Source: Planctomycetota bacterium (GTDB lineage: Bacteria > Planctomycetota > UBA1135 > UBA2386). Taken from it: a stretch of DNA of 64,000 nucleotides. The notes beneath the pieces are model-generated. The model worked only from the letters and a program-made list of their open reading frames with translations, was not told the DNA's origin and searched no databases. Each line of letters begins with the position of its first letter. Within the stretch, counting starts at the first letter, position 1. Below are positions 1-51,585 of the stretch, piece by piece. The stretch is from assembly GCA_046290465.1 (NCBI GenBank), contig JBKAGP010000001.1, forward strand, positions 3,616,001-3,680,000, written 5' to 3'. Made by a program: the position numbers and the translations under genes.

Positions 1-591
1 CTTGGCGGCCTCGATCGCGCCGTTGCTGCGCTGCGGCACCGCTGCGCCGTAGGCACGGCCGGTGCGACGGAACGCGCGCGGCATCGGCCGGTTGAAGAAC
101 ACGATCTTGCCCTTGGCCGCGGCCCCTAGCTGCTGCAGCTGTTCGAACGAACGGACCTCGACGACCTCGGCCTCGACGCCACCGATCGGCGTTCCGACGC
201 TGCCGCCGAGCGCCGTCACGCGCAACGGCGTGGCGGTCGGCGCCGTCGTCGCGGCCGCCTCGACACCGCGGCGCCAGTTGGGCACCATCACGTTCTCGAG
301 GCGGACCTCGTCGAAGCCGATCTCGCGCATCGTCGTGGCCGCCCACTGCTCGGCGTCGAGCATGCCCTGCGAGCCGGCCAGCCGCTTCGGCGCCGCCTCG
401 ACCAGCGAACGCAGCGTTGCGATCGCGCGGTTGTCGTCGAGCGCCCGGGCCTCGAGGGCGAGCGCGCGCTCGCGCAGCGCCGGGTCCACTGCGGATCCAT
501 CCAAAAGCTTCGCCGACGGCGTAGCGCCGCAGCCACCGAGGATTGCGGCCGTGACCAGGAACGAGAGTGCGCGCGAAGGCCTGCAGTGCAT
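1..591 (-). CDS. M28-family (carboxypeptidase Q-like) PA-domain peptidase, lipoprotein; 3' part runs off the window start
   Basis: Not in ORF track. Manual translation from ATG at 591: MHCRPSRALSFLVTAAILGGC (lipobox) ... VTALGGSVGTPIGGVEAEVVEVRSFEQLQQLGAAAKGKIVFFNRPM...YGAAVPQRSNGAIEAAK, typical of the PA domain of CPQ-like M28 peptidases. Confidence 0.8.
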   Translation of the reverse strand, partial: MHCRPSRALSFLVTAAILGGCGATPSAKLLDGSAVDPALRERALALEARALDDNRAIATLRSLVEAAPKRLAGSQGMLDAEQWAATTMREIGFDEVRLENVMVPNWRRGVEAAATTAPTATPLRVTALGGSVGTPIGGVEAEVVEVRSFEQLQQLGAAAKGKIVFFNRPMPRAFRRTGRAYGAAVPQRSNGAIEAAK

Positions 592-626
592 CGCAGAATC
601 CTATGCGTCGCCTACACTCGCCGGCC

Positions 627-1952
627 ATGCGTGGCTCGCCAACGACCGCTCCGACCGACCATCCGCTGCTGGCATCGACGCTGGCCGCGACGCTGGCGTT
701 CGCCCAGATCGCCGCCTGCCAGCAGGATCGCCCGGCCCGATGCGAGCCGGACGCGCTGGTGTGCCTCGACGGTTCGCGGGTCGAGACCGCCGAGCAGTGG
801 CGCACCAGGCGGCGACCGGAATTGCTGGAGCTGTTCCGGCGCCAGATGTACGGACGCGCGCCCCGGCCGAGCGCGATCACGATCGAAGAACGTTCGCAGG
901 CGCCGGCGCTCGACGGCAAGGCGCTGCGCAAGCAGTGGCACGTCCGCTACGCCGAGGGGCCGACGGCCGTCGTGCGGGTGCTCGCCTACCTGCCGGCCGA
1001 ACGCGACGGCGCGGTGCCGGTGTTCCTGGCGCTCAACTTCGACGGCAACCAGACCGTGCACCCGGACCCCGACATCCGGCTCGCCTCGAGCTGGGTGCGC
1101 AACTCCGACGAGCACGACATCCACGATCATCGCGCCAACGAGTCGACCCGCGGCCGCGCGGCACGGCGCTGGCCGGTCGAGGCGATCCTGGCTCGCGGCT
1201 ACGGCCTGGTGACCGCCTACTACGGCGACCTCGACCCGGACTTCGACGACGGCTTCCACAACGGCGTGCACGGCGTGCTCGACCCGCAACGCGACGGCCC
1301 GCGACCGCCGGACGCGTGGGGCGCGATCAGCGCATGGGCCTGGGGGCTGTCGCGCATCGTCGACTCGCTCGAGCACGACGACGACATCGACGGCCGCCGC
1401 ATCGCCCTGCTCGGCCACTCCCGCCTCGGCAAGACGTCGCTGTGGGCCGGCGCGCAGGACGAGCGCTTCGCGCTGGTGATCGCCAACGAGTCCGGCTGCG
1501 GCGGCGCCGCCTACGCGCGTCGCAAGCAGGGCGAGACGGTGGCGGCGATCACCCGGAACTTCCCGCACTGGTTCTGCCGCGCGTTCCGCAGCTACGCCGA
1601 CAAGGAGGAGCAGATGCCGTTCGACCAGCACCTGCTGGTCGCGCTGTGCGCGCCCCGTCCGGTCTACGTCGCGAGCGCCGAACAGGACCGCTGGGCCGAC
1701 CCCGCCGGCGAGTTCGCGTCCGCCGCCGGTGCCGACGGCGTCTACCGGCTGCTGTGCGGCGACGGCCTGCCGACCACCGAGATGCCGGCCGTGGACACGT
1801 CGATCCAGGGCCGCATCGGCTACCACGTGCGCAGCGGCAAGCACGACCTGCTCGAGGTCGACTGGCAGCACTTCCTCGACTTCGCCGACCGGCACTTCGC
1901 CGGCGATGCGACCGGGGCCGGCAAGGCGGAGCGGCCGGAGAACGGCAAGTAG
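627..1952 (+). CDS. CE15 glucuronoyl esterase-like / acetylxylan esterase, secreted
   Basis: GHSRLGK nucleophile motif, AWAWGLSR, ESGCGGA, PFDQH, WADP. Start uncertain (567-627). Confidence 0.85.
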   Translation: MRGSPTTAPTDHPLLASTLAATLAFAQIAACQQDRPARCEPDALVCLDGSRVETAEQWRTRRRPELLELFRRQMYGRAPRPSAITIEERSQAPALDGKALRKQWHVRYAEGPTAVVRVLAYLPAERDGAVPVFLALNFDGNQTVHPDPDIRLASSWVRNSDEHDIHDHRANESTRGRAARRWPVEAILARGYGLVTAYYGDLDPDFDDGFHNGVHGVLDPQRDGPRPPDAWGAISAWAWGLSRIVDSLEHDDDIDGRRIALLGHSRLGKTSLWAGAQDERFALVIANESGCGGAAYARRKQGETVAAITRNFPHWFCRAFRSYADKEEQMPFDQHLLVALCAPRPVYVASAEQDRWADPAGEFASAAGADGVYRLLCGDGLPTTEMPAVDTSIQGRIGYHVRSGKHDLLEVDWQHFLDFADRHFAGDATGAGKAERPENGK

Positions 1953-2091
1953 CGATCCGGGCATTCCTCCTGCTCAGAAGGACGCAGCCGCAAGGCCAGG
2001 CGCCGTAAAGACCCGGTCGCTCTCCGCGCAACGCGGCAAATCACCAATTCCGCGTGACAGGGACCGCCGCGGCACGCCCACCCCCCGCGTC

Positions 2092-3066
2092 ATGGAGAGA
2101 ACCGCCCCCGGTCGAGCCCTGCTCGGTCTCGTCGCTGCCGCAACCCTGCTGCCCCATCCGCTCGCTGCCCAGCGCGGTGGCGATGCACCGGGCGTGCAGC
2201 ACGTCGTCGTGGCGACCGATGCCGACGACGAGCAGGTCGATGCCGCGCTGGAGCAGATCAAGAAGACGATCCTGCCGATCAGCTGGGAGCCGAAGTGCGA
2301 CGACGACGAACGGCGCCGCGACAAGTACCTCAAGAAGTGGCAGGCCGTCGTCAGCGGCCACTACATCGTGTTCACCAACGGGCCGAAGGCGTCGTGCAAG
2401 AAGTACGCGGTCACCCTCGAGAAGCTCTACAAGGTGATCCAGAAGGAGCTGCCGTTCGAAGACCCGGACCACCTGCTGGTCGCCTACATCTTCAAGGATC
2501 CGGAGGACTACTACCGGTTCACGGTCGAGGTCACCGGTTGGCCCGAAGCGTCCGCGCGCGCGACCGCCGGCCACGCGCTGCCCAGCTACTACGCGACCTA
2601 CTACGAGTCCCCGCGGGCGCCGACGGTCTACCACGAAGCCGCGCACGAGATCGTCGGCGCGTGCCTGAAGGTCAACGGCGTCGGCTCGTGGTTCCAGGAG
2701 GGCCTGGCCGTCTACTTCGAGAAGCAGATGACCAACCAGGGCCTCGGCAAGTGCCGCAGCGACGTCAAGCGCGGCGACTACTACCCGCTGAAGGAGTTCT
2801 TCGCGATCCGCACGCTGCTGGCCGACCGGAACGGCAACGGCCATCGCAACTACGACCACGCGGGCGACCTGCTCGACTTCCTGATCAACACCGACGAGGA
2901 GCCGGTGGCGGGCAGGTTCGGCGACTTCCTGAAGGCCGCGTGCACCCAGGGCCACGGCCTGGCACGAGGCCCGGCCGTCAGCGCGCGCCTGGTGCAGCGC
3001 GTCTACGGCCTGTCGGTCGAGCAGCTCGAGGAAGTCTGGATGAAGCACCTGCGCATCAAGCGCTGA
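2092..3066 (+). CDS. DUF1570-like secreted zinc metallopeptidase
   Basis: Signal peptide, HEAAH (HExxH) followed by WFQEGLAVYF. Confidence 0.7.
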   Translation: MERTAPGRALLGLVAAATLLPHPLAAQRGGDAPGVQHVVVATDADDEQVDAALEQIKKTILPISWEPKCDDDERRRDKYLKKWQAVVSGHYIVFTNGPKASCKKYAVTLEKLYKVIQKELPFEDPDHLLVAYIFKDPEDYYRFTVEVTGWPEASARATAGHALPSYYATYYESPRAPTVYHEAAHEIVGACLKVNGVGSWFQEGLAVYFEKQMTNQGLGKCRSDVKRGDYYPLKEFFAIRTLLADRNGNGHRNYDHAGDLLDFLINTDEEPVAGRFGDFLKAACTQGHGLARGPAVSARLVQRVYGLSVEQLEEVWMKHLRIKR

Positions 3067-3134
3067 GTGCGCGGCGCGCCGGCAGGCCCATGGCTGGCAC
3101 TACCGCACGCGCTGGCTAGACTGCCCGCGCATCC

Positions 3135-4565
3135 ATGGCCCCGACCGTTCGCACCGCCGTGCAGGCCCTGCTGGTCCTGCTGCCGATCGCCGTCCTCGCG
3201 GCACTGATCGCGTGCTACGGCGTCGACGTGCCGCTGAACGACCAGTGGGCGCTGGTCGGGCGGGTCGAGCGAGCGTGCACCGAAGGGCTGACGTGGAACG
3301 ACGTGGTCACGCCCCACCACGAGCACTGGATGCCGGTGCCGATGGCGCTGATGCTCGCGCTCGCGTCCTGGACGGACTGGAACTGCAGGGCCGAACTGCT
3401 GGTCAACGGCGTGCTCGGCCTGTGCGCCTTCGCGCCGATCGCGTGGCGCGTGGTCGCGGCACAGCGCGAACGTGGCGAGGGCACGCTGCTGGCCCTGCCG
3501 ACGGCGGCGCTGATCACGACCGCGATCACCCAGCATCAGAACTGGCTCTGGGGCCTGCAGGTCTCGTCGCTGCTGTGCGTCGCGAGTGCGCTCGCGGGTC
3601 TGCACCTGATCAGCACGGAGCGACCGTCGCCGCTGCGCCTGGTCGCGGCGATCCTGGCGGCCGTCGTCGCCAGCGGCTCGCAGTTCCAGGGCAACCTCGT
3701 CTGGCCTGCCGGCCTGCTCGCGATCCTGATGGCGCACGGCGGCGTGCGCGGTGCGCTGCGCACGCTGCTGGTCTGGTCGGGATGCATGCTCGCCGTCGCG
3801 GCCAACGCCTACCGACTGCTGCAGACGGACTCCGACACCGGCGCGTTCGTGGAGGCTCCGTGGGACGCCGCGCGCTACGTGCTCGTCTACCTCGGCGCGC
3901 CGTTGGCCGGCCCGTCGGAAACGTGGTCTTTGCTGTGCGGAGCCGTCGGCTGCGTCGCGGCGATCGCGCTGTTGCCGCGCACCCGCGCACCGCGCACCCG
4001 CCCGTTCGTGCTCGCGCTGCTGGCGTTCTCGATCGGCGCCGCGGCGGTCACGGCGATCGGTCGCCTGGGCACCTCGACCGAGCAGGCGCGCGCCTCGCGC
4101 TACCTCTCCTATGCGACGCCGATGTGGATCGCGGTGACGATCCTGCTGGCGTCGGCCCGGCTGCCGGCCCGGATCCGGACGGCGTTGCTGGCGCTGATCT
4201 ACCTCGCCATCGCCACCTGCTGCGTGCTCTCGCTCGAGGTCATCGGCAGGCAGAGCCGCGCGCGGCAGGCTGCACGCGACCACTTCCTGGCGCAGCGAGA
4301 CGCGATCCCGGACGACCTCGCCGCGTTCGCGCCGGCGTTCGCCGACCCCGAACTGCTCGTGCTCCTGCAGCAGGTCGGCGGCGAGCCCTCCCGCCTCTAC
4401 ACCGAACGCCCCGACGAGATCCAGCGGTTGCTCGAACGGCACGGTCTCGCCTTCGTCGACGCCCGGCACCTCGGCACGATGCACAAGGACCACCAGCTCG
4501 TGCGCGCTGGACTGGTCACGCTGAAGCGACGCGGGCTGTCGGTGTTCCGCGGCGATCCGCCGTAG
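3135..4565 (+). CDS. Polytopic membrane protein, possibly a GT-C-like glycosyltransferase
   Basis: About 10 hydrophobic segments; DVPLNDQW and HHEH loop after TM1; SRY motif. Function is a guess. Confidence 0.55.
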   Translation: MAPTVRTAVQALLVLLPIAVLAALIACYGVDVPLNDQWALVGRVERACTEGLTWNDVVTPHHEHWMPVPMALMLALASWTDWNCRAELLVNGVLGLCAFAPIAWRVVAAQRERGEGTLLALPTAALITTAITQHQNWLWGLQVSSLLCVASALAGLHLISTERPSPLRLVAAILAAVVASGSQFQGNLVWPAGLLAILMAHGGVRGALRTLLVWSGCMLAVAANAYRLLQTDSDTGAFVEAPWDAARYVLVYLGAPLAGPSETWSLLCGAVGCVAAIALLPRTRAPRTRPFVLALLAFSIGAAAVTAIGRLGTSTEQARASRYLSYATPMWIAVTILLASARLPARIRTALLALIYLAIATCCVLSLEVIGRQSRARQAARDHFLAQRDAIPDDLAAFAPAFADPELLVLLQQVGGEPSRLYTERPDEIQRLLERHGLAFVDARHLGTMHKDHQLVRAGLVTLKRRGLSVFRGDPP

Positions 4566-4721
4566 CGCGCAGCCCGGCCCCGGGACCGGACCGCCCGCAG
4601 GCGTCAGAAAATGGTCTCCGAGCCGCCGAACCGGCCCGGACGCGACGCGACGCTGGCCATCGACGACCTCCTACGTAGATTGCCGCGCCCCCATGAACCG
4701 CAACGCCCCCCACTCCGGCTC

Positions 4722-6881
4722 GTGATCCGCACCTCTCTCACCATCACGTGCCTCGCCGTCGGCAGCGCACTCGCCCAGTCACAGAACCCCAACACCGACC
4801 CGCAGGATCCGCCGGGCCAGCAGCCGAAGCCCGCGCAGGCCGCCGAGCTGCCCGAACAGGTGTTCGTCTCCGCCGAGAAGTGGAACGGCCCGGCAGCCCA
4901 GGACGTGCCGCGCAGCTTCACGCCGATCTCCGAGCGCCTGCGCAAGGACGCCGGCATCACGTCGATCGAGGAGGCCGCGCGGTTCGTGCCCAACGCGCTG
5001 GTCACCGGCTTCACCGCGCGGCGGCTGAGCTTTCCGTACGTGCGCGGCGTCGGTTCGGGCCAGGGTGACCCAGCGGTCGCGACGTTCGTCGACGACGTGC
5101 CTCAGCTGAGCATCAGCAGCACCAACCTGTCGCTGGTCGGCCTCGACCGCATCGAGATCCTGCGCGGCCCGTCGGGCGCCTTGTGGGGTCGCAACACGAT
5201 CGGCGGCGCGATCAACCTGATCACCAAGGAGCCCGAGTTCCAGAACGGCGCCGAGCTGTTCGCGTCGGTCGGCAACTTCAACTCACAGCGCTACGAGGTG
5301 CGGGCCACCGGCCCGATCACCGAGGACTCGCTCGCCGCCAGCGTGTCGGCGTCGTACGAGCGGCGCGACGGCTTCACCGACAACACCTTCACCGGCAACG
5401 ACGTCGACTTCCGCGAGAGCACGTTCGCCCGCGGTCAGGTGCTGTGGGCGCCCGACGACGACAACACGGTGCGCTTCGTGCTCTACGGCGAAGGCACGCG
5501 CGACGGCGGCTTCGTGCTGTCCGACGTCGGCGGCCTGCGCAGCAACCCTTACCGCATCAACCAGGACTTCGAGGGCAGCACCGACCGCGACATCCTGGCT
5601 GCGTCGGTGATCTGGGAGCACACCGGCGACGGCTTCGACTTCACGTCGATCACGTCGGCCCAGACCTGGGAGATCGACGAGACGTCGGACTTCGACTTCT
5701 CGCAGATCGACGGCGTGCGCCGCTACACCAGCGAGGAGGAGGACTACGCCTACCAGGAGTTCCGCCTGCAGTCGAACGGCGACTACGACCCGAGCGACCG
5801 CGACGCGACCGGCATGCGCTGGCTCGCGGGGGTCAGCGGCTTCTACAGCGACGAGCAACGCTCGGCCGCCAACGAGTTCCGCCCCGGCGGCGCCGGCATC
5901 ATCTTCGCGCCGAGCATGGTCGGCACCGACCGCAGCGTCGGCGACTTCCAGAGCTACGCGCTGAGCGCGTTCGGCCAGGTGTCGATGCTGCTCGGCAGCG
6001 GCCTCGAGGTGTCCGGCGCGGTGCGCTACGACTACGAGGACAAGAAGGCGGGCATCAACCGCACGTTCAGCGTCAGCGGCTTCGCGTCGCCGCTGGCGAC
6101 GACCAGCCAGAGCCGTTCGTTCGACCGCGTGCTGCCGCGCGCCAGCATCACCTGGCGCGCCAACGACGACGTCACGTCGTACTTCACGATCGCGCGCGGC
6201 TTCAAGGCGGGCGGCTTCAACCTGACCGCGCCGTCGGGGCAGGAGTCGTTCGGCGTCGAGAGCAGCTGGACCTACGAACTCGGCGTCAAGTCGCGCTGGC
6301 TCGACGATCGGGTGCAGGCCAACGCAGCGGTGTTCTTCGTCGACTGGGACGACATGCAGCTGAGCCAGTTCGATCCGATGGCCGGCGGCTTCGTCAGCAA
6401 CGCCGGCGAGTCGACCAGCCAGGGCATCGAGCTCGAACTGGTCGGCGAGGCCACCGACGAGCTGACCGTGTTCGGCACCGCCGGCTACCTCGACACCGAG
6501 TTCGACCGCTTCACCGACCAGTTCGGCCAGGACGTGTCCGGTCGCAGCCTGCCGTTCGCGCCCGAGTGGACGTTCGGCGCGGGCGCGCAGTATCGCCAGC
6601 GCATCGACGACGACCTCGCCGCGTTCGCGCGCATCGACTACTTCCACGTCGGCGAGTTCTACTACGACGCCGGCAACCTCGGCCGCGAGCGCTACAACCT
6701 GACCAACCTGCGCATCGGCGTCGACTACGAGAACTGGCGCGTCGACCTGTTCATGCACAACGCCTTCGACGAGGAATACGTGTCGCTCGCGTTCCAGGCC
6801 AACCCGGCCGACCCGACCCAGTTCGTCGGCCAGAACGGCGCGCCGCGGACCTATGGCCTGTCGGTGCGCGTGACGTTCTAG
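4722..6881 (+). CDS. TonB-dependent outer-membrane receptor
   Basis: Plug motif IEILRGPSGALWGRNTIGGAINLIT, RGFKAGGFN, C-terminal PRTYGLSVRVTF. GTG start inferred from the signal peptide. Confidence 0.92.
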   Translation: MIRTSLTITCLAVGSALAQSQNPNTDPQDPPGQQPKPAQAAELPEQVFVSAEKWNGPAAQDVPRSFTPISERLRKDAGITSIEEAARFVPNALVTGFTARRLSFPYVRGVGSGQGDPAVATFVDDVPQLSISSTNLSLVGLDRIEILRGPSGALWGRNTIGGAINLITKEPEFQNGAELFASVGNFNSQRYEVRATGPITEDSLAASVSASYERRDGFTDNTFTGNDVDFRESTFARGQVLWAPDDDNTVRFVLYGEGTRDGGFVLSDVGGLRSNPYRINQDFEGSTDRDILAASVIWEHTGDGFDFTSITSAQTWEIDETSDFDFSQIDGVRRYTSEEEDYAYQEFRLQSNGDYDPSDRDATGMRWLAGVSGFYSDEQRSAANEFRPGGAGIIFAPSMVGTDRSVGDFQSYALSAFGQVSMLLGSGLEVSGAVRYDYEDKKAGINRTFSVSGFASPLATTSQSRSFDRVLPRASITWRANDDVTSYFTIARGFKAGGFNLTAPSGQESFGVESSWTYELGVKSRWLDDRVQANAAVFFVDWDDMQLSQFDPMAGGFVSNAGESTSQGIELELVGEATDELTVFGTAGYLDTEFDRFTDQFGQDVSGRSLPFAPEWTFGAGAQYRQRIDDDLAAFARIDYFHVGEFYYDAGNLGRERYNLTNLRIGVDYENWRVDLFMHNAFDEEYVSLAFQANPADPTQFVGQNGAPRTYGLSVRVTF

Positions 6882-39269: not shown

Positions 39270-39348
39270 CAAACACCGCATACCGAACCCGGTTCATCCT
39301 GCGCCGTTTCACGGCGCAGGATGAACCGGGTTCGGTATGCGGTGTTTG
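39270..39348. repeat. REP/REPIN-like palindrome, copy 1 (perfect 38-bp arms, TTC loop)
   Basis: CAAACACCGCATACCGAACCCGGTTCATCCTGCGCCGT-ttc-exact reverse complement. Confidence 0.95.
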
Positions 39349-40220: not shown

Positions 40221-40309
40221 CAAACACCGCATACCGAACCCGGTTCAGCCTGCGCCGTGAAACGGCGCAGGCTGAACCGGGTTCGGTATGCGGTGTCGGT
40301 ATGCGGTGT
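40221..40309. repeat. REP/REPIN-like palindrome, copy 2 (35-bp arms, GAA loop, plus a 13-bp terminal duplication)
   Basis: Arms at 40224-40258 and 40262-40296; CGGTATGCGGTGT repeated at 40297-40309. Confidence 0.95.
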
Positions 40310-41628: not shown

Positions 41629-41677
41629 CGCCATCCCCCGACCCTGCATCGCGGACCCCGATGGCGGGCACCGCATG

Positions 41678-41737
41678 AAACACCGCATACCGAACCCGGT
41701 TCAGCCTGCGCCGTGAACCGGGTTCGGTATGCGGTGT
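41678..41737. repeat. REP/REPIN-like palindrome, copy 3 (internally deleted)
   Basis: Matches copy 2 but lacks the 15 nt between two TGAA microhomologies. Confidence 0.9.
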
Positions 41738-41825
41738 CCGGCTGCGGCGGGCGTGGTGGGAGGTTGCTGGTGGCGGATCCGGGTGCGGGGGTGACGGGCG
41801 GTGCGGGACCCTGCACGATGGCGGG

Positions 41826-43236: not shown

Positions 43237-44607
43237 ATGTCGCCCGTGCTGCCCGCCCTGTTCGTCGCCGCGATGTCCTGCGGCCTGCCGCTCGCCCAGC
43301 AAGGCCGGCAGGCGACTCCGGAGAGCCGGCCAGGGCTCGAGGCGCAGCACCAGCGCGGCGACTGGAGCAGCTGGCGCGGCCCGCTCGGCACCGGCGTGGC
43401 GCCGCAGGCCGATCCGCCGATCCAGTGGAGCGAACGGCAGAACGTGCGCTTCAAGGTCGCGGTGCCCGGCTTCGGCTACGGCACACCGATCGTGCACGGC
43501 AACCAGGTCTTCGTGACCGCGGCGGAGCCGTTCGGGCCCGAACTCGCGCCGGTGCCCGACGACGCACCCGGTGCGCACGACAACGCGCGCGTCACGCAGA
43601 AGCACCGCTTCCTGGCGATGGCGTTCGACGCACGCACCGGCGAGCAGCTGTGGCGAACGGACCTGCACCAACAGCTGCCGCACGCGGGCTTCCACCAGAG
43701 CAGCGCGCTCGCAGCGGCGTCGGCGGTGACCGATGGCGAACACGTGTTCGCGTTCTTCGGCTCGTACGGCCTCTACTGCCTGACGGTCGACGGCGATCTG
43801 GTCTGGCAGACCGACCTCGGCGACATGGACATCAAGCACGGCCACGGCGAAGGCGTCACGCCGGTGCTGCACGGCGACACGCTGGTCGTCAACTGGGACC
43901 ACGAGGGGCCGTCGTTCGTCGTCGCGTTCGACAAGGCGACCGGCGAGGAGCGCTGGCGCAAGCAGCGCGACGAGGTGACCTCGTGGTCGACGCCGATCAC
44001 CGTCGAGCACGACGGCCGCGTGCAGGTGATCGTCAGCGCGACCGGCGCCGTGCGCGCCTACGACCTCGCGACCGGCGACGTGATCTGGTCGTGCCGCGGC
44101 CTGTCGCACAACGTCGTCGCGTCGCCGGTCGCCGCGGACGGCTTCGTCTACGCGGGCAGCAGCTACGAGAAGCGGCGCATGTTCGCCGTCGAGCTGCAAG
44201 GCGCCAAGGGCGACATCACCAACACCGACAGCGTCGTCTGGCGTCGGCAGCGCGGCACCCCCTACGTGCCCTCGCCGCTGCTCTACGGTGAGTGGCTCTA
44301 CTTCCTCAACCACTACCAGGGCTTCCTGGCGCGCGTGCATGCGAGGACCGGACGCGAAGCCCACCGCCCGATCCGCCTGCCCGGCATGCGCGCGATCTAC
44401 GCCTCGCCGGTCGGCGCCGCCAACCGGATCTACCTGACCGATCGCGAAGGTGTCACGCTCGTGCTCGCGCATCCTGCGAACGGCGCCGAGCCCGAGGTGC
44501 TGGCGCGCAACGTGCTCGACGACAGCTTCAGCGCGTCGATGGCGGTCGTCGGCGACGCGATCTACCTGCGCGGCCGGCAGCACCTGTACTGCCTCGCCAG
44601 GCCGTAG
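43237..44607 (+). CDS. PQQ-like beta-propeller protein
   Basis: DWSSWRGP; HGEG, NWDHEG and EVTSWSTP shared with the 31974 paralogue. Confidence 0.9.
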   Translation: MSPVLPALFVAAMSCGLPLAQQGRQATPESRPGLEAQHQRGDWSSWRGPLGTGVAPQADPPIQWSERQNVRFKVAVPGFGYGTPIVHGNQVFVTAAEPFGPELAPVPDDAPGAHDNARVTQKHRFLAMAFDARTGEQLWRTDLHQQLPHAGFHQSSALAAASAVTDGEHVFAFFGSYGLYCLTVDGDLVWQTDLGDMDIKHGHGEGVTPVLHGDTLVVNWDHEGPSFVVAFDKATGEERWRKQRDEVTSWSTPITVEHDGRVQVIVSATGAVRAYDLATGDVIWSCRGLSHNVVASPVAADGFVYAGSSYEKRRMFAVELQGAKGDITNTDSVVWRRQRGTPYVPSPLLYGEWLYFLNHYQGFLARVHARTGREAHRPIRLPGMRAIYASPVGAANRIYLTDREGVTLVLAHPANGAEPEVLARNVLDDSFSASMAVVGDAIYLRGRQHLYCLARP

Positions 44608-44616
44608 CGGCGACCG

Positions 44617-46797
44617 CTACTTCTTCTCGACACGCTCGAACATGAGCTTCTGGTCCTTGCCGATGCGCAGCGCAATCGTCTTGGGGCCGGAGGCCGGCGT
44701 GATGATCTCGAGGTCGACCGGAATGCCGGAGATCGGGTAGGCGCCGTCCTTCTTCTCGTCGACACAGACGCGGTTGCGATCGCCGTCCGGGCCGAACCAG
44801 AGCTCGCCGTCCGAGACCGACATCGCGACCTCACGCTCGCCGAGCGGGGTGTTCTTCATGGTCGGCTTGTAGCGGCCGAGGATCGACGCGAACTCCTTCT
44901 TCAGCGCCTCGGTATCGCGCGCGATCTCGGCCGGCGTGCGCATCAGCCGCCGGATGGCGCTCGGCTGCGCAAACGCGTCGCCGACCTCCACCCACTCGGC
45001 CCCCTGCAAGGCCATCACGTGCTCCTGGCCGTCCTCGGCGCGGTAGCGCGTGATGCTCTGCGGTAGCGTCAGCCCGGAGAGGCGCTGCGAGCCGTGGTAG
45101 ACCAGCGTCGACCGCCGCGCGCCCTCGGTGCCGCGGAGGCGGCCCGAGTCGACGGCGAAGTAGAACGAACGGCTGTCCCCCGCGCTCGACGCGGTGACCT
45201 TCCAGCACTCGGTCTCCGCGAACCGCACCGGGCCGGAGGTCTTCGCCCCCTCGGGGCACGTCGGCGCAAACAGCTGCGACAGCGGGAACAGCTGCTGCAG
45301 CTCGAACCGCTCGTCGCCGGAGACCATGCGCGCGCCCTGCGGTTCGATCGCCCAGCACGAGTCCTGGTCGCACACGTAGTCGAGGCCTCCCTCGTCGAGA
45401 TGCTGCACCCACAGGTCCGGCGCGACCAGCGTCATCGTCATCGGCTCCGGCGGCAGCCCGCGCAGCGGGATCGCCCAGGTGCCGGTCAGCCGCAGCGCCT
45501 TGCCCTCGACCGCGAAGGCGTCGGCGGCAACGGCCGCTGCGTGCTTGTCGAACAGGTCCTTCGCGGCGGGCGCATCCGCCGCGGCGTCCCCGCCAGCCCC
45601 CTTGGCGACGCCACCGCCCCGGTGGTCGAGGCACGCCATGTCGCCAAGGCTGTTGCGCACGTAGATCAGCCCCCCGACGAACACCGGCATCGTCCAGTAG
45701 ACGCCGCCCTCGAGCACCTTCTTGCGCGACAGCTCGCGGAACTCGTCCGGGTCCGCCTCGGCGACGATCAGTTCGCCGTCCGAGTTGAGCACCAGCAGGC
45801 GACCGCCTGCCATCGACAGCGAACCGAGACCCAGGCCGCGCACGCGCCACTTCGACTTGCCGTTGCTGTCGAGGCAGCGGAGCATCGACTCGTCGAAGCC
45901 GTAGAGGTGGTCCTCGTGCAGCACGCACGCGGTCACCTTGTTGCGCATGCGCTTGTTCGACCACAGCCGTTCGGGCTCCTTGTCGTCGCCGAGCCGGATC
46001 ATCGCCGCGCCCTTGTTGTAGGCCGTCGACAAGAACACGCGATCCTCGCCGACCGCGATCGGCACCGCGCAGTGCACGGCGCTGCCCATCAGCGGCCACG
46101 GGTATTCGTAGAGCACGCGGCCGTCGTCGCGCGCGTGCACGAAGAACGTCGTCGCGCGCATCGCGGCCAGCGCCGGCGTGCCGCCCACCTCGAGCATCGC
46201 GAGGTTGGAGTAGGACGCGTCGCCGAGGTCGTTGGTCTTCCAGATGACGGCGCCGTCCTGCTTGCGCACGGCAGCGACGAGGCCGCCGAACTGCAGGTAG
46301 ATGCGGTCGTTCTCGAGCAGCGGCGACGCCGAGAAGCCGTGGAAGGTCCTCTCGACCTGCCACTCCTTCGCATAGTCGCGGGTCCAGGCGACCTTGCCGT
46401 TGGCGAGGTCGAGCACGTGCAACACGCCGAAGCGGTTGAGGCAGTAGACGCGGCCGTCGTGGATCGTCGGCGTCGTCAGCGTGCCGCCGCCGTGGTAGCG
46501 CGGTTCGTCGGACGAGTCGTATTCGTACTTCCAGAGCCGCTTGCCCGTCTTGGCGTCGAGGCAGAGCACGCGATCGACGCCCTCCTTCTCGTGGTAGCCC
46601 ATCGTGACGAGCTGGCCGCCCACGATCGACGGGCACGAGTAGCCGAGCCCGACGTTGGCGCGCCACAGCGGCTCGTCCGCGCCGACCGGCGACCAGTCGC
46701 GCGCGGCGACGATTGCGGTGCGGTCCGGGCCGCGGTATTCCGGCCAATCGGGACCCTGGGGAGCGGACAGAACGAGGGCACTGAAGAGGGTGAGCAT
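44617..46797 (-). CDS. PQQ-like beta-propeller with a ~300-aa C-terminal (possibly LolA-like) domain
   Basis: DWPEYRGP; propeller ends near MACLD, followed by a Gly/Ala linker and a beta-rich domain. Confidence 0.82.
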   Translation of the reverse strand: MLTLFSALVLSAPQGPDWPEYRGPDRTAIVAARDWSPVGADEPLWRANVGLGYSCPSIVGGQLVTMGYHEKEGVDRVLCLDAKTGKRLWKYEYDSSDEPRYHGGGTLTTPTIHDGRVYCLNRFGVLHVLDLANGKVAWTRDYAKEWQVERTFHGFSASPLLENDRIYLQFGGLVAAVRKQDGAVIWKTNDLGDASYSNLAMLEVGGTPALAAMRATTFFVHARDDGRVLYEYPWPLMGSAVHCAVPIAVGEDRVFLSTAYNKGAAMIRLGDDKEPERLWSNKRMRNKVTACVLHEDHLYGFDESMLRCLDSNGKSKWRVRGLGLGSLSMAGGRLLVLNSDGELIVAEADPDEFRELSRKKVLEGGVYWTMPVFVGGLIYVRNSLGDMACLDHRGGGVAKGAGGDAAADAPAAKDLFDKHAAAVAADAFAVEGKALRLTGTWAIPLRGLPPEPMTMTLVAPDLWVQHLDEGGLDYVCDQDSCWAIEPQGARMVSGDERFELQQLFPLSQLFAPTCPEGAKTSGPVRFAETECWKVTASSAGDSRSFYFAVDSGRLRGTEGARRSTLVYHGSQRLSGLTLPQSITRYRAEDGQEHVMALQGAEWVEVGDAFAQPSAIRRLMRTPAEIARDTEALKKEFASILGRYKPTMKNTPLGEREVAMSVSDGELWFGPDGDRNRVCVDEKKDGAYPISGIPVDLEIITPASGPKTIALRIGKDQKLMFERVEKK

Positions 46798-46852
46798 GGG
46801 CCCGCACATGGTAGCCCTGCAGCCGCACACGCGGCTTTCAAAGAGCACGGTG

Positions 46853-46881
46853 TTGACAACAACGACGCAGCTCGCTATGGT
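46853..46881 (+). promoter_or_regulatory. Sigma70-type promoter
   Basis: TTGACA (46853-58), 17-nt spacer, TATGGT (46876-81), in an intergenic region between divergent genes. Confidence 0.75.
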
Positions 46882-46892
46882 CCCGCGCCGCC

Positions 46893-46964
46893 ATGAGCCA
46901 CCAGTTGCACAACCAGATCGACACGTCGCGCTTTCGCGACCTGAGGTCTACGCACGCGAGCTGA
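46893..46964 (+). CDS. Putative attenuator leader peptide MSHQLHNQIDTSRFRDLRSTHAS (23 aa)
   Basis: ATG 11 nt after the -10 box; stop 24 nt before a terminator; overlaps a predicted antiterminator. Confidence 0.55.
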   Translation: MSHQLHNQIDTSRFRDLRSTHAS

Positions 46965-46988
46965 TCGATCCACGATCGCTCTCGTCAC

Positions 46989-47031
46989 AAAGGCCTCGCC
47001 ACCGATTGCGGTGCGAGGCCTTTTCGGTTTT
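46989..47031 (+). terminator. Intrinsic terminator (attenuator)
   Basis: AAAGGCCTCGC-c-ACCG attg CGGT-GCGAGGCCTTT followed by TCGGTTTT. Confidence 0.8.
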
Positions 47032-47096
47032 GGAACCGGCTGCATGGCCGAACCGGCAGTGCGACCCTGCCACACACGGAAGAAGGAGGACTCCCG

Positions 47097-47129
47097 ATGA
47101 ACGACATCTGCACCGAACAACTCGTCTGA
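47097..47129 (+). CDS. 10-codon mini-ORF MNDICTEQLV
   Basis: Strong AAGGAGGA Shine-Dalgarno 6 nt upstream of the ATG. Confidence 0.35.
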   Translation: MNDICTEQLV

Positions 47130-47212
47130 ACGCCGTCCGGCGGCGCGCTCCCGGCCCATCGAGGTTCCGGCTGCGTGTTCCGCGACACGGGTTCTCACGG
47201 CGTCAGATCGCG

Positions 47213-47284
47213 CGTTGCGTAGCTCAATGGTAGAGCACGGGACTGTTGATCCCGGGGTTACGGGTTCGAATCCCGTCCAGCCGA
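47213..47284 (+). tRNA. tRNA-like element, anticodon GTT (Asn), with a defective acceptor stem (pseudo-tRNA or tRNA mimic)
   Basis: TA-GCTC AATGGTA GAGC D-arm; CGGGA CTGTTGA TCCCG anticodon arm; ACGGG TTCGAAT CCCGT T-arm; acceptor strands CGTTGCG/CCAGCCG mismatch; no encoded CCA. Confidence 0.8.
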
Positions 47285-47710
47285 GGCACTCGGCACCTCT
47301 TGCCCAAAAGGGCGCACCCGACGCGTGTTCCTGCCGGCGTCCGCGCGACGCCGCGACCGCCTGCGAATCGCTCCCGACGAGCGGCACGCAGGACCGTTCG
47401 ATCACCTTGCACCATTCGACTCGCGCCGCGGAAGCGGCGCGGCAACGGCACCGTTGTGCGCCCAGGTTGCGATCCGCGGACCTCTGCGATCCTTCCGAAA
47501 CGCACGGCGTCGCCCGCACCGCGTCGCGCCGCTTCGCCTGCGCCTGGTCCGTGATCGCGGCGGGGTCGCTGCGACACGTGGCGCTGGCGGGGCACCTTTC
47601 TCGACGTATCCCGACCACTGCATTCCCCCGTCGCCGGCGATCAGGAACGGCGCCTGCGACGGCTCAGCCTTCACGTTCCAACCAACTCCCCACCTCCGAA
47701 GGAGGACCCC

Positions 47711-48829
47711 ATGATCCGCACCTACATCAAGCAGCACGAGATCGGTCTCGTGTTCCGTCGCGGCGACCTCAGCCGCGTGCTCGAGCCGGGCCGGCACATC
47801 CTGCCGGAGCGGCTGCTGCCCGACACCCGCATCGAGAAGCACTCGATGCTCGACACCCGCTTCCGTCACGACTCCCTCGACACGCTCGTCGAGAACGAGA
47901 CCCTGCGTTCGCACCTCGAGATCGTCGATCTCAGCGAGGACGACCGCGCGGTCGTGTGGCGCAACGGCTGCCTGTACGACTTCGTCGGCTCCGGCCGCTA
48001 CGCGTATTGGAAGACTCCGCACACGCTGAAGGTCGAGGCCTTCAACGTGGCGGAGGTCGAGTTTCGTCACCCGCAGCGCGATGCGATCATGACCATGCCG
48101 CAGGCTCCCGAGCACCTGCTCGGGGTCGACGTCGACTCGCACGAGCGCCTGCTCGTGCGGCGCGGCGGCGAACTGGTCGGGGTCTACGGCGGCGGGCGTC
48201 ACGCGTTCTGGTCGCGCGGTCGACTGATCACCTGGACGGCCGTGGACATGCGCGAGCAGATCGCGGACGTCGCCGGACAGGAGATCATGACCGCCGACAA
48301 GGTCACGCTGCGACTCAACCTCGTCGTTGCCTGGCGCGTCACCGATCCCGAACGGAGCACCAGCGTCGTCGACAACGCGGCCGGGGCCGTCTACCGCGAA
48401 GCCCAGCTCGCGCTGCGCGCCGCGGTCGGCACCCGCGAACTCGACCGCCTGCTGTCCGACAAGGACAAGGTGGCCAACGAGGTCCGCGCGTCGATCACGC
48501 CGCGAGCGTCCGAGTTCGGCGTCGCGATCGCGTCGGTCGGCATCCGAGACATCGTGCTGCCCGGCGAGATGAAGACGATCCTCAACCAGGTCATCGAGGC
48601 CGAGAAGAAGGCGGAGGCCAACCTGATCCGTCGTCGCGAAGAGACCGCGGCGGCGCGCAGCCAGGCCAACACCGCCAAGCTGCTGGCCGAACACCCCGTC
48701 CTGCTCCGCATGAAGGAGCTCGAGTCGCTCGAAGCGATCCTGCGCGACGCGCGCACGACCTTCGTGTTCGGCTCGGGTGACATCACGCGACAGGTGAAGA
48801 GCCTGATCGCCTCCGGCGAACAGGAATGA
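47711..48829 (+). CDS. Slipin family (SPFH/Band 7) protein
   Basis: GAAGGAGG SD; VDMRE...GQEIMTADKVTLRLN, GIRDIVLPGEMK, RREETAAARSQANTAKL. Confidence 0.9.
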   Translation: MIRTYIKQHEIGLVFRRGDLSRVLEPGRHILPERLLPDTRIEKHSMLDTRFRHDSLDTLVENETLRSHLEIVDLSEDDRAVVWRNGCLYDFVGSGRYAYWKTPHTLKVEAFNVAEVEFRHPQRDAIMTMPQAPEHLLGVDVDSHERLLVRRGGELVGVYGGGRHAFWSRGRLITWTAVDMREQIADVAGQEIMTADKVTLRLNLVVAWRVTDPERSTSVVDNAAGAVYREAQLALRAAVGTRELDRLLSDKDKVANEVRASITPRASEFGVAIASVGIRDIVLPGEMKTILNQVIEAEKKAEANLIRRREETAAARSQANTAKLLAEHPVLLRMKELESLEAILRDARTTFVFGSGDITRQVKSLIASGEQE

Positions 48830-49030
48830 CCGGACCACCCGGTCCGCGCGTCCTCGGCGGCATCCGTCGCCGGGGACGCGTCCCATCGCCGTACCGAGTC
48901 GTTTTCCGGTGACAGGAACGCGCGCGGTCCGTTCACAGCGCACTGCCGCCGAGCGACCCGCCGACCCCACGGCTCGCCACGTGCACACGGCCGGATGGCT
49001 GCCTCCATCCGGACCCAAGGAAGAAAGAGC

Positions 49031-50188
49031 ATGAGCAAGGCCCACATCGCAATCATCTGTGCCATCGGTCTGTCCGCAGGTCCGTTCGCGACCTGCATCG
49101 CACAGCAGCCCCATGGCATGGCGGCCGACGGCATGGCGGCGTTCGCCGAGCTGTCGCCGGCCCGGCAGAAGAAGCTCGTAAAGGAGATGCGGCTCGCCGC
49201 GGACGCGATCGAGCACGTCGCGTTCGACGCGCAGCGGGAGCTGCTCGCCCAACTGCGGAAGGCGAAGCTCGCCAACCAGAAGAGCAAGCTCGGCAAGACC
49301 AAGGAGTCGAAGAAGCCAGCACCCAAGGCCCCCGCGAGCTGGCAGCTGCCGGCCGTCGTCACCTACCGCTACGGCTTGGCCCGGATCGAGCCGGTGCTGC
49401 GAACGGGCGGTCGCAACGCGCTCAAGGCCGCCGAACTGCGCGTGCCGACCGAGCTGTTGCTGCTCGGCATGCTGCCGGACGCGGACCTGGTCGTCGCCGA
49501 ACTTCAGCGCCAGATGGACGGCGACCGGTCGGCCGACCCGTTCATGCGCTTCCTCGAGCTGTGGCGCAACGGCGACGAGAGCTTCTACCAGGCGCTCGAC
49601 CGGACCGCCGGCACGCAGGACAGCGTGTTCTTCTACGACGTGATGCTCGGCGACTACGTCAAGAGCTTCGGCAAGGGCAAGAGCGCCGCCGCCAAGCACC
49701 TCGCGAGCAGCCTCGACGCCGCGCACGATGCGCTGCACGACTCGTTCTTGAGCTACCGACAGTACCGGGCGTTCCGCGAGGCCGTCGCGCTGTCGCTGGT
49801 GCTGCCGCCGGACGTGCAACTGCCGGCGCGGCTACGCCGCTACGAGACCGCCGCCGAAGGCCTCTACTCGCTGCGCGACCAGGTGCAGATGGTGCTCGCC
49901 GCCAACGACCACGACCCGCGCGCCGTCACCACGCTGGTGCGCGAGACCGCCCCGCCGCTGCCGGACCCGCTGTGGTCGAGCAGCTACAACCCCTACGACG
50001 GCTGGACCAAGGTCTTCCAACGCGCGATGCCCAAGATGATCGCCGACAGCGGCAGCACCGACGCGTTCTTGGCGAAGGCCAGCAAGCAGGCGACCGAACG
50101 CGCGACGACCGTGCGCAACGCAGCACGCGCCGCGCTCGGCCTGCCGACCGGCGAACCCCGCCACCTCGGCGGCGCGGCCCCGCAATAG
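49031..50188 (+). CDS. Hypothetical secreted, helical protein
   Basis: Long ORF with host-like codon bias and a signal-peptide-like N-terminus; no motif recognised. Confidence 0.7.
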   Translation: MSKAHIAIICAIGLSAGPFATCIAQQPHGMAADGMAAFAELSPARQKKLVKEMRLAADAIEHVAFDAQRELLAQLRKAKLANQKSKLGKTKESKKPAPKAPASWQLPAVVTYRYGLARIEPVLRTGGRNALKAAELRVPTELLLLGMLPDADLVVAELQRQMDGDRSADPFMRFLELWRNGDESFYQALDRTAGTQDSVFFYDVMLGDYVKSFGKGKSAAAKHLASSLDAAHDALHDSFLSYRQYRAFREAVALSLVLPPDVQLPARLRRYETAAEGLYSLRDQVQMVLAANDHDPRAVTTLVRETAPPLPDPLWSSSYNPYDGWTKVFQRAMPKMIADSGSTDAFLAKASKQATERATTVRNAARAALGLPTGEPRHLGGAAPQ

Positions 50189-50301: not shown

Positions 50302-51378
50302 CTAGGGGGACGTTCGGTTTGCGGGCCGGCACGTCGACAACGCGTAGAGAACCACCAATGCGAGCAGGCTGACGACGGCGACCTTGCCGGCGAGGGCAGG
50401 GCCGCCAGCCGCGGCGGCCTTGGCCGGCGCTGCGGCGAGGCCGAGCGTGTGGGCCAGCGCACCGCCGGCCATCAGGCCCGCGACGCCGACGAACGCATCG
50501 CCGTTGCCTTCGCCGGTCAGCACGATCAGGCGCACCGGGCAGCCCCCGCAGAGCGCGCCGCACAGGCCGACCAGCATCAATCCGAGCAGGTTCCAGAGCC
50601 AGACGCCGTGGGCGACCGGCGCGTCGAAGCCGAACGTGAAGCGACCGCCGACCAGGGCGACGAGCGCGTAGGTGCCGACCATCGCCCCCGCCGCGACCAG
50701 CATCGAACGGCGACCGCCGAACACCTGCCGCATCGCGGAGATGCCACAGAACCCGGTCGCCGACAGGATCGCGCCGGCCACACCGCCGATCGCGAGCGCC
50801 CACAGCCACGGAGCATGGCCGGGCGGACCACCGACGCCGGGACCGGGGCCGGCGAGCACGTCCGTCGCCACGAACACCACCAGCAGCCCGACGCACGCGA
50901 TCGGACCGAGCAGCCCGACCCCGAGCGGCACTTCGTGGGTCTTCCCGATCGAGTAGCCGCGCGCCTCGAACCCCATCGCGATCCGCACGCCGAGGCCGAA
51001 GCCCGGCAGCGCGAGCCAGGCGTTGAGGTCGCCGCCACCGAGCCGCTGGAACAGCCGGAACGGACAGCCGAGGAACACCAGCGCGCCGACGGCCATCGCC
51101 GCCGCCAGCAGGAACCGCGCCACCGCGTTGGATCCCGAGCGACCGACGTGGCGCCCGCTCACCAGACAGAACAACAGTGCGCCGAGCACGACGCCGGGCA
51201 CCTCCGGCCGCAGGATCGATGGCCCTTGGTGCAGGCCGAGCGCACCGGCGACGTCACGTGCGAAGCAGGCACCGCACAGCCCCATGTTCCCCGGGTTGCC
51301 CAACAGCACGAGCGCCGCCGCGAGCGCGCCGACCACCGCCATCAGCAGGACGCCCGCGGTTCGGCGGGCCGGAGTCAC
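50302..51378 (-). CDS. yedE: YedE/YeeE-family membrane protein, selenium-metabolism-associated subfamily
   Basis: GNPGNMGLCGACFARDVAGALGL, LRPE, FLGCPFR...LGGGD, GGCPVR...GEGNGD. Confidence 0.8.
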   Translation of the reverse strand: MTPARRTAGVLLMAVVGALAAALVLLGNPGNMGLCGACFARDVAGALGLHQGPSILRPEVPGVVLGALLFCLVSGRHVGRSGSNAVARFLLAAAMAVGALVFLGCPFRLFQRLGGGDLNAWLALPGFGLGVRIAMGFEARGYSIGKTHEVPLGVGLLGPIACVGLLVVFVATDVLAGPGPGVGGPPGHAPWLWALAIGGVAGAILSATGFCGISAMRQVFGGRRSMLVAAGAMVGTYALVALVGGRFTFGFDAPVAHGVWLWNLLGLMLVGLCGALCGGCPVRLIVLTGEGNGDAFVGVAGLMAGGALAHTLGLAAAPAKAAAAGGPALAGKVAVVSLLALVVLYALSTCRPANRTSP

Positions 51379-51585
51379 TTCGCCACGTAGCATCTGCGGA
51401 ACTGTGCGGCGAGCCGGCGACGCTGTCAGCAGGGAAATGCCACGCGACCGCCCCCGGCCCCTGGGTCGCGGACTGCAGCGTCGAGCAGGACCGCGTCCTC
51501 GTCGACTGGAGCCCGGTCGACGACGGCGTGCGCATCGAGTCGCAGCTGTCGATGACCCCGATCCGGTAGGCGCCTCGTCGGCGGA

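Follow-up and report, generated by a model that had tools for sequence, protein, structure and literature searches.

Burroughs and Aravind (Nucleic Acids Res 2016) reportedly predicted, by comparative genomics, an RNA-repair pairing of Band-7 proteins with a tRNA-like RNA (b7a-tRNA). In the parts of a later preprint that discuss this name and prediction (bioRxiv 10.1101/312249), the b7a-tRNA is described as an RNA with a strong likeness to an authentic tRNA, functional redundancy of YrlA/Y RNA with it is proposed, and its status as of 2018 is given as lacking experimental validation. Here we analysed a 64-kb window of a Planctomycetota genome (3,616,001–3,680,000 of the single 6.59-Mb contig JBKAGP010000001.1, assembly GCA_046290465.1; coordinates are those of the window unless a genome position is stated) in which, as in the b7a-tRNA/Band-7 module, a tRNA-shaped RNA is encoded upstream of, and on the same strand as, a slipin-family SPFH gene. 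Read from sequence comparison, the locus is a slipin/tRNA-mimic unit, probably gated by an attenuator, and its RNA goes far beyond a tRNA look-alike in size and structure. The elements, all co-directional on the + strand, follow in the order promoter, leader open reading frame (ORF), terminator, mini-ORF led by a Shine–Dalgarno (SD) sequence, hairpin, tRNA-like element, spacer and slipin, and span roughly 46853–48846 (~2 kb) without accessory enzyme genes. The whole arrangement recurs in 16 related loci (eleven from genomes and five from metagenomes, with slipins 60–73% identical), referred to below as the close clade. We judge it reasonably probable (about 0.6) that the locus represents a stand-alone Band-7 (slipin)/tRNA-like RNA pair with its own ribosome-sensing switch, tied to RNA-damage or translation-stress responses. 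A preliminary description of this DNA had listed promoter, leader ORF, terminator, mini-ORF, tRNA-like element and slipin, each of which was checked and found in place, and had proposed a search for the leader, terminator and tRNA-like element upstream of slipin homologues, where they proved conserved in the 16 related loci; an 86-nt hairpin was absent from its list.

Relatives of the locus adjoin RtcB (16 loci) or RtcR and a nucleotidyltransferase, as in the b7a-tRNA/Band-7 module, whereas the locus itself has none of these three genes and no sigma-54 promoter, its predicted control lying in the leader ORF, terminator and mini-ORF. Compared with the module as known from the citing preprint, the RNA adds an 86-nt covarying hairpin and a closed domain of ~430 nt, and its acceptor end is systematically defective where the parts of the preprint considered here stress resemblance to an authentic tRNA. 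The expected linkage of the slipin family to RtcB holds for a part of the family, RtcB lying within 4 kb of slipin in 16 of the 86 loci searched (L007–L092), none of them in the close clade, and does not extend to this locus. No RtcB match was found in the window, in line with the reported absence of RtcB and RtcR from the locus; the genome matches are two to RtcB (4186947–4187969 and 4306297–4307427) and one to RtcR (4321077–4321625), at 4.19, 4.31 and 4.32 Mb, all >500 kb from the locus. The RtcR-like gene lies 14 kb from one of the two RtcB-like genes (G000:C1). Control of the slipin family by RtcR and sigma-54, likewise anticipated, is seen in a Citrobacter record with a divergent rtcR but not here, no sigma-54-type -24/-12 motif being found in 46700–47750.

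YrlA/Y RNA and its partner Ro60 (Rsr), encoded in rsr-yrlBA-rtcBA operons, offer a second likeness in that a non-coding RNA with a tRNA-like (elbow) module stands beside a scaffold protein in an RNA-repair context. The present locus differs in its SPFH partner and in a tRNA-like part that keeps its anticodon arm; there was no match to a TROVE/Ro protein in the genome (94% complete) and no Rfam match to the Y-RNA family at E ≤ 1. A third likeness is with the long tRNA arrays (L-arrays) of Anabaena. Within the portions of the two reports considered, long tRNA arrays, also present in Planctomycetes, are induced by translational stress and co-regulated with rtcB (PMC8421152, whose main text does not contain the terms band 7, SPFH or stomatin), while the Anabaena gene alr0740, annotated as slipin, shows a 42-fold increase when trcR is mutated, alongside rtcB and the tRNA array, and is among chloramphenicol-induced genes (PMC10272220). 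Co-regulation of this slipin-annotated gene with rtcB and the array parallels the occurrence, in other lineages, of the slipin core within co-directional arrays. The differences are that no tRNA genes were called by ARAGORN in the 64-kb window, hence no array is present at the locus, and that Anabaena control, as these portions present it, is by the repressor TrcR and not by attenuation. Within the literature collection searched, neither a description of the hairpin, spacer or attenuator nor a later paper on the Band-7/tRNA-like pairing was found, the RNA description of the 2016 paper lying outside this comparison.

The conserved hairpin (86 nt, 47123–47209) lies directly 5' of the tRNA-like element and is marked by three bulges in its 3' strand (UU, GACAC and UUCUCA). 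A covariance model (R1) built from 11 hairpin sequences gave 64 matches at E < 0.01 among 82 sources and 49 among 80 independently fetched metagenome loci, and every match at this threshold is located upstream of slipin and shares its strand. When the count is restricted to loci with 700 nt or more of upstream sequence, 62 of 70 from genomes and 44 of 59 from metagenomes have the hairpin; of the eight genome loci lacking it, four show matches at E 0.015–0.81. In a 64-sequence alignment, which was fitted to the R1 model and is thereby biased toward the structure, 91.8% of cells are paired compared with 32–49% when partners are slid, 28 of 30 pairs have changed on both sides and none of 500 shuffles matches the observed values. 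The hairpin is present as a single copy in this genome and has no family in Rfam 15. Weak R1 matches on both strands at 39274–39344, 40225–40295 and 41645–41743 (E 0.03–0.5) probably stem from palindromic, GC-rich hairpins of no relation to it, which may belong to a repeat family.

The tRNA-like element (47213–47284) has its D, anticodon (loop CUGUUGA) and T arms intact and scores 56.4 bits on Rfam RF00005, above the family's gathering score of 29, while ARAGORN makes no call on it. Its acceptor stem retains 4 of 7 pairs, with non-standard pairs at positions 3, 5 and 6, and continues 3' with AGGCAC instead of CCA. The genome carries a normal tRNA-Asn(GUU) with encoded CCA elsewhere, of which the mimic is no recent copy, and both genomic tRNA genes that were inspected encode CCA. 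The defect extends across the family: with the same parser, a complete 7/7 acceptor was found in one of 54 hairpin-linked elements compared with 163 of 203 ordinary type-I array tRNAs (57 further array tRNAs, long-arm or unparsed, were excluded), 21 of the 54 having six pairs and 32 having five or fewer, and mismatches concentrate at positions 1 and 2 (29/54 each). CCA is encoded in 6/54 mimics and 33/203 array tRNAs. No other conserved partner for the 5' strand of the acceptor was found, its best duplex partners being scattered (10 in the acceptor, 11 at +13–40, 16 at +41–80 and 17 beyond). Anticodon loops of the mimics are nearly all different and of 6–9 nt, and the D and T arms are conserved and nearly invariant across Planctomycetota and Acidobacteriota loci. 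Because the D and T arms are conserved while the acceptor is incomplete and the anticodon loops diverse, these comparisons indicate that the elbow is kept in this class and that the decoding and amino-acid-accepting ends are free to vary. The broken acceptor, the missing CCA and the single complete acceptor among 54 family members make it very probable, as originally suggested, that the tRNA mimic is not chargeable.

The slipin start lies 426 nt downstream of the RF00005 match on the same strand, and the intervening spacer (47285–47710), which the preliminary description had treated as ~420 nt of plain non-coding sequence, is instead a conserved structured RNA with covarying long-range helices, small hairpins and an anti-SD hairpin. 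Two small hairpins (47279–47293 and 47302–47313) vary in sequence while their pairing is kept, as judged by eye. The partners of a long-range helix (47325–47339 with 47582–47595) change together in four relatives (L018, L019, L020 and L078), and RNAduplex predicts strong pairing of the two regions in all 16 members of the close clade, with z-scores of -0.2 to -4.0 against mononucleotide shuffles that are supportive but weak at this GC richness. Within it, an inner helix (ATCAC 47409–47413 with GUGAU 47551–47555) joins the five bases before CUUGCA to the five after UCC and occurs in versions such as ATCAC:GTGAT (the window), GCCAC:GTGGC, TCAGC:GCTGA, GCAGC:GCTGC and GAACG:CGTTC. Over 59 sequences this inner helix forms 202 pairs, where permuting the partners gives 164.6 ± 6.4 (0 of 2000 permutations) and sliding them gives 89–144, and 15 distinct versions are fully paired; one-base misalignment of some rows lowers the count. 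The spacer helices were read from an E-INS-i alignment, this one being the helix tested by permutation, and RNAalifold recovered 2 pairs only from a plain MAFFT spacer alignment. Rfam has no family for the spacer, and in a six-frame tblastn search of the leader without composition correction low-complexity matches swamped all frames and places.

Closer to the slipin gene, GGAACG (47644–47649) pairs with CGUUCC (47674–47679), and an anti-SD hairpin (CCUCC 47693–47697 with the SD sequence GGAGG 47701–47705) covers the slipin ribosome-binding site. Of the close relatives, eight of the 11 from the genome set have this hairpin, as do, judged by eye, all five from metagenomes, against a genome-wide baseline of 9.3%. 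The minimum-energy fold of 47095–47725 (-290.2 kcal/mol, z -2.4) contains the 86-nt hairpin, the long-range helix and the CCUCC/GGAGG hairpin. Between the end of the 86-nt hairpin and the start of slipin lie a median of 514 nt (388–1368, n = 63), with 57 of 63 loci within 388–715, among proteins just 43–73% identical. Hairpin, tRNA-like element and spacer constitute, as far as conservation indicates, one large conserved RNA, and since hairpin and spacer belong together, the RNA product may be ~600 nt instead of a free, tRNA-sized decoy.

The same features bear on an alternative in which the whole 600-nt leader is a cis-acting sensor of riboswitch or T-box-like type, its tRNA-shaped domain and hairpin binding a cellular ligand, for instance the ribosome, a tRNA or a protein that binds tRNA, the SD:anti-SD pairing being opened or closed as the spacer refolds, and slipin being the sole effector. 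The narrow distance that hairpin, tRNA-like element and spacer keep to the slipin start fits such a sensor, as do the SD-masking hairpin of this clade, the closure by long-range helices of a domain that ends ~115 nt before the slipin start codon, and recurring GGAAC/GUUCC boxes, noted by eye, that would permit alternative pairings. Against it, just 9 of the 52 more distant loci have the anti-SD hairpin, which the family as a whole does not share, no conserved alternative fold was found, with duplex partners of the acceptor strand at scattered positions, and in arrays the hairpin directly follows ordinary tRNAs presumably cut by RNase P and Z, which suggests that the RNA is processed. We regard this alternative as on the whole unlikely, and prefer the reading as a slipin/tRNA-mimic pair that makes RNA and protein as joint products.

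Leader-peptide attenuators, of the trp type or in antibiotic-sensing resistance leaders, combine a promoter-near short ORF, an intrinsic terminator and an alternative pairing that the ORF overlaps. The unit shows the same parts, the ORF-overlapped pairing as a prediction, with the differences that no regulatory codons or peptide are conserved, that the regulated product is chiefly RNA, and that the predicted logic runs from translation to termination and from the missing ribosome to read-through. The sigma-70-type promoter (46853–46889) consists of a -35 box TTGACA (46853–46858), a 17-nt spacer, a -10 box TATGGT (46876–46881) and then a conserved GC-rich segment CCCGCGCC. It is the sole sigma-70-like site in 46000–49500 (one found compared with 0.2 expected from shuffles), in a scan for the sigma-70 consensus, which planctomycete promoters may not fit. 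The motif TTGAC-N16-18-TAnnnT is present in 14 of the 16 relatives, the remaining two having no recognisable one or too little upstream DNA. A GC-rich CCGCGCC-type segment after the -10 box (window 46882–46889) was seen by eye in most of the 16 related loci; it resembles the discriminators known from rRNA and tRNA promoters under stringent control.

The leader ORF (46893–46964; 23 codons and a TGA stop) begins 11 nt past the -10 box and is therefore nearly leaderless. In all 14 relatives with a recognisable promoter the first ATG past the -10 box opens an ORF of 23–41 codons whose stop lies 18–54 nt before the terminator, while the other frames give such an ORF in none (+1) or two (+2) of the 14. 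The intrinsic terminator (46991–47033) comprises a 13-bp bulged stem-loop (46991–47021, -23.8 kcal/mol), overlooked by a simple terminator scan owing to the bulge, and a T-rich tail TTTCGGTTTTGG; a terminator of -22 to -27 kcal/mol was found in 16 of 16 sequences, with 12 consensus pairs of which five have changed on both sides. The final codons of the leader ORF include a predicted antiterminator strand, TGAGGTCT (46942–46949), whose partner would be the terminator 5' arm. When the terminator 3' arm is left out of the fold, 8–12 of the 13 bases of the 5' arm pair with an ORF segment 10–30 nt before the end of the stop in the minimum-energy structures of all 16 sequences. The antiterminator is a predicted fold, and the case for it is its constant position relative to the leader-ORF stop.

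An alternative takes the promoter, leader ORF and terminator as a small gene or small RNA in its own right; transcription of the tRNA-like RNA and slipin would then start from an unrecognised promoter past 47033, and there would be no attenuation. The strength of the terminator (-23.8 kcal/mol) speaks for this, as does the segment between terminator and mini-ORF, which varies in length (30–110 nt) and sequence, and planctomycete promoters may deviate from the scanned sigma-70 consensus. Set against this, both parts co-occur in the same order in all 16 close relatives and nowhere else in the family, neither a promoter-like nor a sigma-54-like motif was found downstream (no promoter-like site between terminator and slipin in the sigma-70-consensus scan), and the antiterminator partner is constant in position relative to the stop codon. 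We consider two independent genes quite improbable and retain the attenuator as the probable gate of the slipin unit.

Past the terminator, an SD sequence (AAGGAGG) and a mini-ORF of 10 codons encoding MNDICTEQLV (47083–47129; ORF 47097–47129) end in a TGA stop within the base of the 86-nt hairpin. An SD-led ORF of 8–14 codons ending at hairpin position 4–5 is present in 15 of the 16 close relatives; outside this clade two such mini-ORFs, both of spurious appearance, were found among the 93 other hairpins with enough upstream DNA (109 examined). By these comparisons this clade alone has the mini-ORF and the leader-peptide attenuator.

Taken together, we propose the following course of events. 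RNA polymerase would start at the promoter at 46853, and a ribosome close behind it would cover the last codons of the leader ORF, so that the terminator at 46991–47033 forms and only a ~140-nt transcript results. If the ribosome lags or is absent, as with damaged tRNAs, inhibitors or starvation, the 3' segment of the ORF would pair with the 5' arm of the terminator and allow read-through; we infer in this way that the locus is regulated by failing translation. Since the stop of the mini-ORF sits in the hairpin base, active ribosomes would keep melting the hairpin, which would act as a second gauge of translation. Further along, the read-through RNA would carry the tRNA-shaped domain with its intact elbow and defective acceptor, a closed multi-helix domain, the SD-masking hairpin and the slipin coding region. 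Two products are expected: a soluble oligomeric SPFH protein, and an RNA that is either the full structured molecule of ~600 nt or a processed piece comprising the hairpin and the tRNA mimic. We judge it most likely that slipin and the RNA, through a putative binding, make up a ribonucleoprotein serving as scaffold or shield for tRNA-directed repair or quality control, with the RtcB RNA ligase supplied from elsewhere in the genome.

An extended version of this proposal is decidedly tentative. The hairpin, mimic and multi-helix domain might constitute a new class of ~600-nt RNA, present at least in Planctomycetota and Acidobacteriota, that together with a cage-forming soluble SPFH protein makes a ribonucleoprotein capturing or shielding damaged tRNAs or baiting tRNA-cutting nucleases; variation of the anticodon loops would then reflect an arms race, and in this clade the particle would be released only when two ribosome-sensing ORFs both report failing translation. 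If an RNA–protein particle of this kind exists, SPFH proteins would gain an RNA-linked role beyond membrane scaffolding and a large structured RNA would be added that is absent from Rfam 15. The compact 2-kb self-contained version without accessory enzymes is easily moved into a test system and offers several handles, including a measurable terminator read-through, two mutable small ORFs, RNA helices defined by covariation and a soluble SPFH protein.

Several observations weigh against the attenuator-gated, stress-related pair. Of the attenuator proposed in the preliminary description, the anatomy is conserved and an antiterminator pairing maskable by the end of the leader ORF is predicted in 16 of 16 sequences, but per-sequence shuffles of the upstream part pair with the terminator arm equally often (fraction 0.06–0.61); there is no clean compensatory change in the antiterminator, and a T-to-C change of the arm in L020 is uncompensated. 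The leader peptide sequence is not conserved, open frames are common at this GC richness, and the T-tails of the terminators are broken by G/C. The mini-ORF is lost in L020, where the stop is gone, and is absent outside the close clade, and is therefore not needed for the core function; the anti-SD hairpin is scarce among distant loci (9/52). As to transcription, the contigs of three metatranscriptome runs, and of a fourth that is uncertain, match just the coding sequence of slipin in a relative 95–99% identical and may include DNA carry-over; one RNA-library contig extends 55 nt further upstream, into sequence unlike the window, and the contigs cover no part of the window leader. A role in repair is argued here by analogy, RtcB being far away in the genome, and alr0740 of Anabaena is slipin by annotation and a candidate orthologue of the window slipin. 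That the tRNA-like element is merely a decaying tRNA gene, a functionless leftover of a lost array or integration site, is scarcely credible, for although ARAGORN makes no call, the acceptor is broken, CCA is missing and real tRNA arrays occur in related loci, its D and T arms are nearly invariant across Planctomycetota and Acidobacteriota while the acceptor top and anticodon loop vary, a covarying hairpin and a fixed distance to slipin accompany it in every case, and it is no recent copy of the genome's tRNA-Asn.

The slipin gene (47711–48829) encodes 372 amino acids with a Pfam Band_7 match (E 9.6e-32), and its homologues carry the NCBI name 'slipin family protein'. No membrane segment was predicted, as judged by eye. 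An AlphaFold model (predicted local distance difference test score, pLDDT, 85.7) divides the protein into N-terminal beta-domains (1–135), an SPFH domain (~136–285) and a long helix (285–346). The model superposes on the stomatin SPFH domain with Z 17.6 (root-mean-square deviation (rmsd) 1.3, 109 residues aligned) and on major vault protein (MVP) with Z 12.2 (rmsd 6.4, 221 aligned, model 4–327 to MVP 324–690), the SPFH part and helix alone already giving Z 12.0 against MVP. A vault-like N-terminus was considered and is unsupported by the model of that domain alone (pLDDT 89.0), whose best match was the first SPFH beta-meander (Z 5.2, rmsd 1.7, 43 aligned) and which reached only Z 3.1 against an MVP repeat; because the N-terminal part fits the beta-meander better than the MVP repeat, the vault-like reading is not established.

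The distribution of the gene is patchy, with slipin present in one of 14 same-genus genomes, three of the 10 genomes searched from other genera of the family and none of 16 genomes from other families of the order. The sole same-genus slipin (G010:C2:2438-2945; L011, L012) is split, its two pieces (85% and 79% identical) lying in different frames, and is either a broken copy or an assembly error. Beyond the close clade, the core of hairpin, tRNA-like element, spacer and slipin is found inside co-directional tRNA arrays in Phycisphaerae, Pirellulales and Acidobacteriota, in agreement with the association of this slipin family with tRNA or tRNA-like genes: tRNA calls over 80 genome loci number 302 on the slipin strand compared with 4 on the opposite strand, and 151 compared with 2 in the metagenome loci. 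Of the 80 genome loci, 25 have at least three ARAGORN tRNAs on the slipin strand and 14 have at least 10. Arrays around the slipin core comprise 10–24 tRNAs, some with RtcB, and in array-embedded loci the hairpin begins a few bases after another tRNA and there is no mini-ORF.

One such array is on an IMG/VR contig predicted to be viral (L175, 94 kb), where an array of 24 tRNAs leads into the hairpin, a tRNA-like element and slipin within 146–5095; the slipin/tRNA-like module may thus be carried on phage-like or other mobile DNA. In Citrobacter freundii (NZ_CP151862.1, L179) a slipin 37% identical is divergent from rtcR and has a nucleotidyltransferase gene after it, and an E. coli record likewise has slipin followed by a nucleotidyltransferase gene. 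The Citrobacter rtcR–slipin intergenic region (L179 5534–5983) contains a sigma-54-like sequence TGGCACGCTTCTGGCA, a partial hairpin core (E 0.3–0.4) and, by eye, a lone T-arm, while RF00005 gave no match between rtcR and slipin in the enterobacterial relatives; the RNA partner looks much reduced in this group. An Acido-Lenti-1 RNA (RF01687, 57.3 bits; L045 8985–9030, - strand) lies a few kb from another slipin locus and is probably unrelated.

At its 3' side the unit probably ends with a GC-rich hairpin (48830–48846) directly after the slipin stop. Most of 13 relatives likewise have a hairpin behind the stop and share nothing conserved further downstream, and none of the genes flanking the window slipin was found beside slipin in related loci. 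The slipin unit therefore appears self-contained, as the flanking genes are not conserved and only the GC-rich hairpin recurs downstream of the stop. Downstream, a 397-amino-acid ORF (48995–50188, + strand) belongs to no Pfam or NCBIfam family and is beside slipin in no related locus; it is followed on the - strand by a gene (50302–51393) without a Pfam match at E ≤ 0.001 that matches a YedE-family putative selenium transporter (NCBIfam TIGR04112, E 2.4e-81). Upstream lie two convergent genes for PQQ/BamB-like beta-propellers (43237–44607, + strand, and 44617–46848, - strand), the second of which begins a few bases from the promoter region of the slipin unit.

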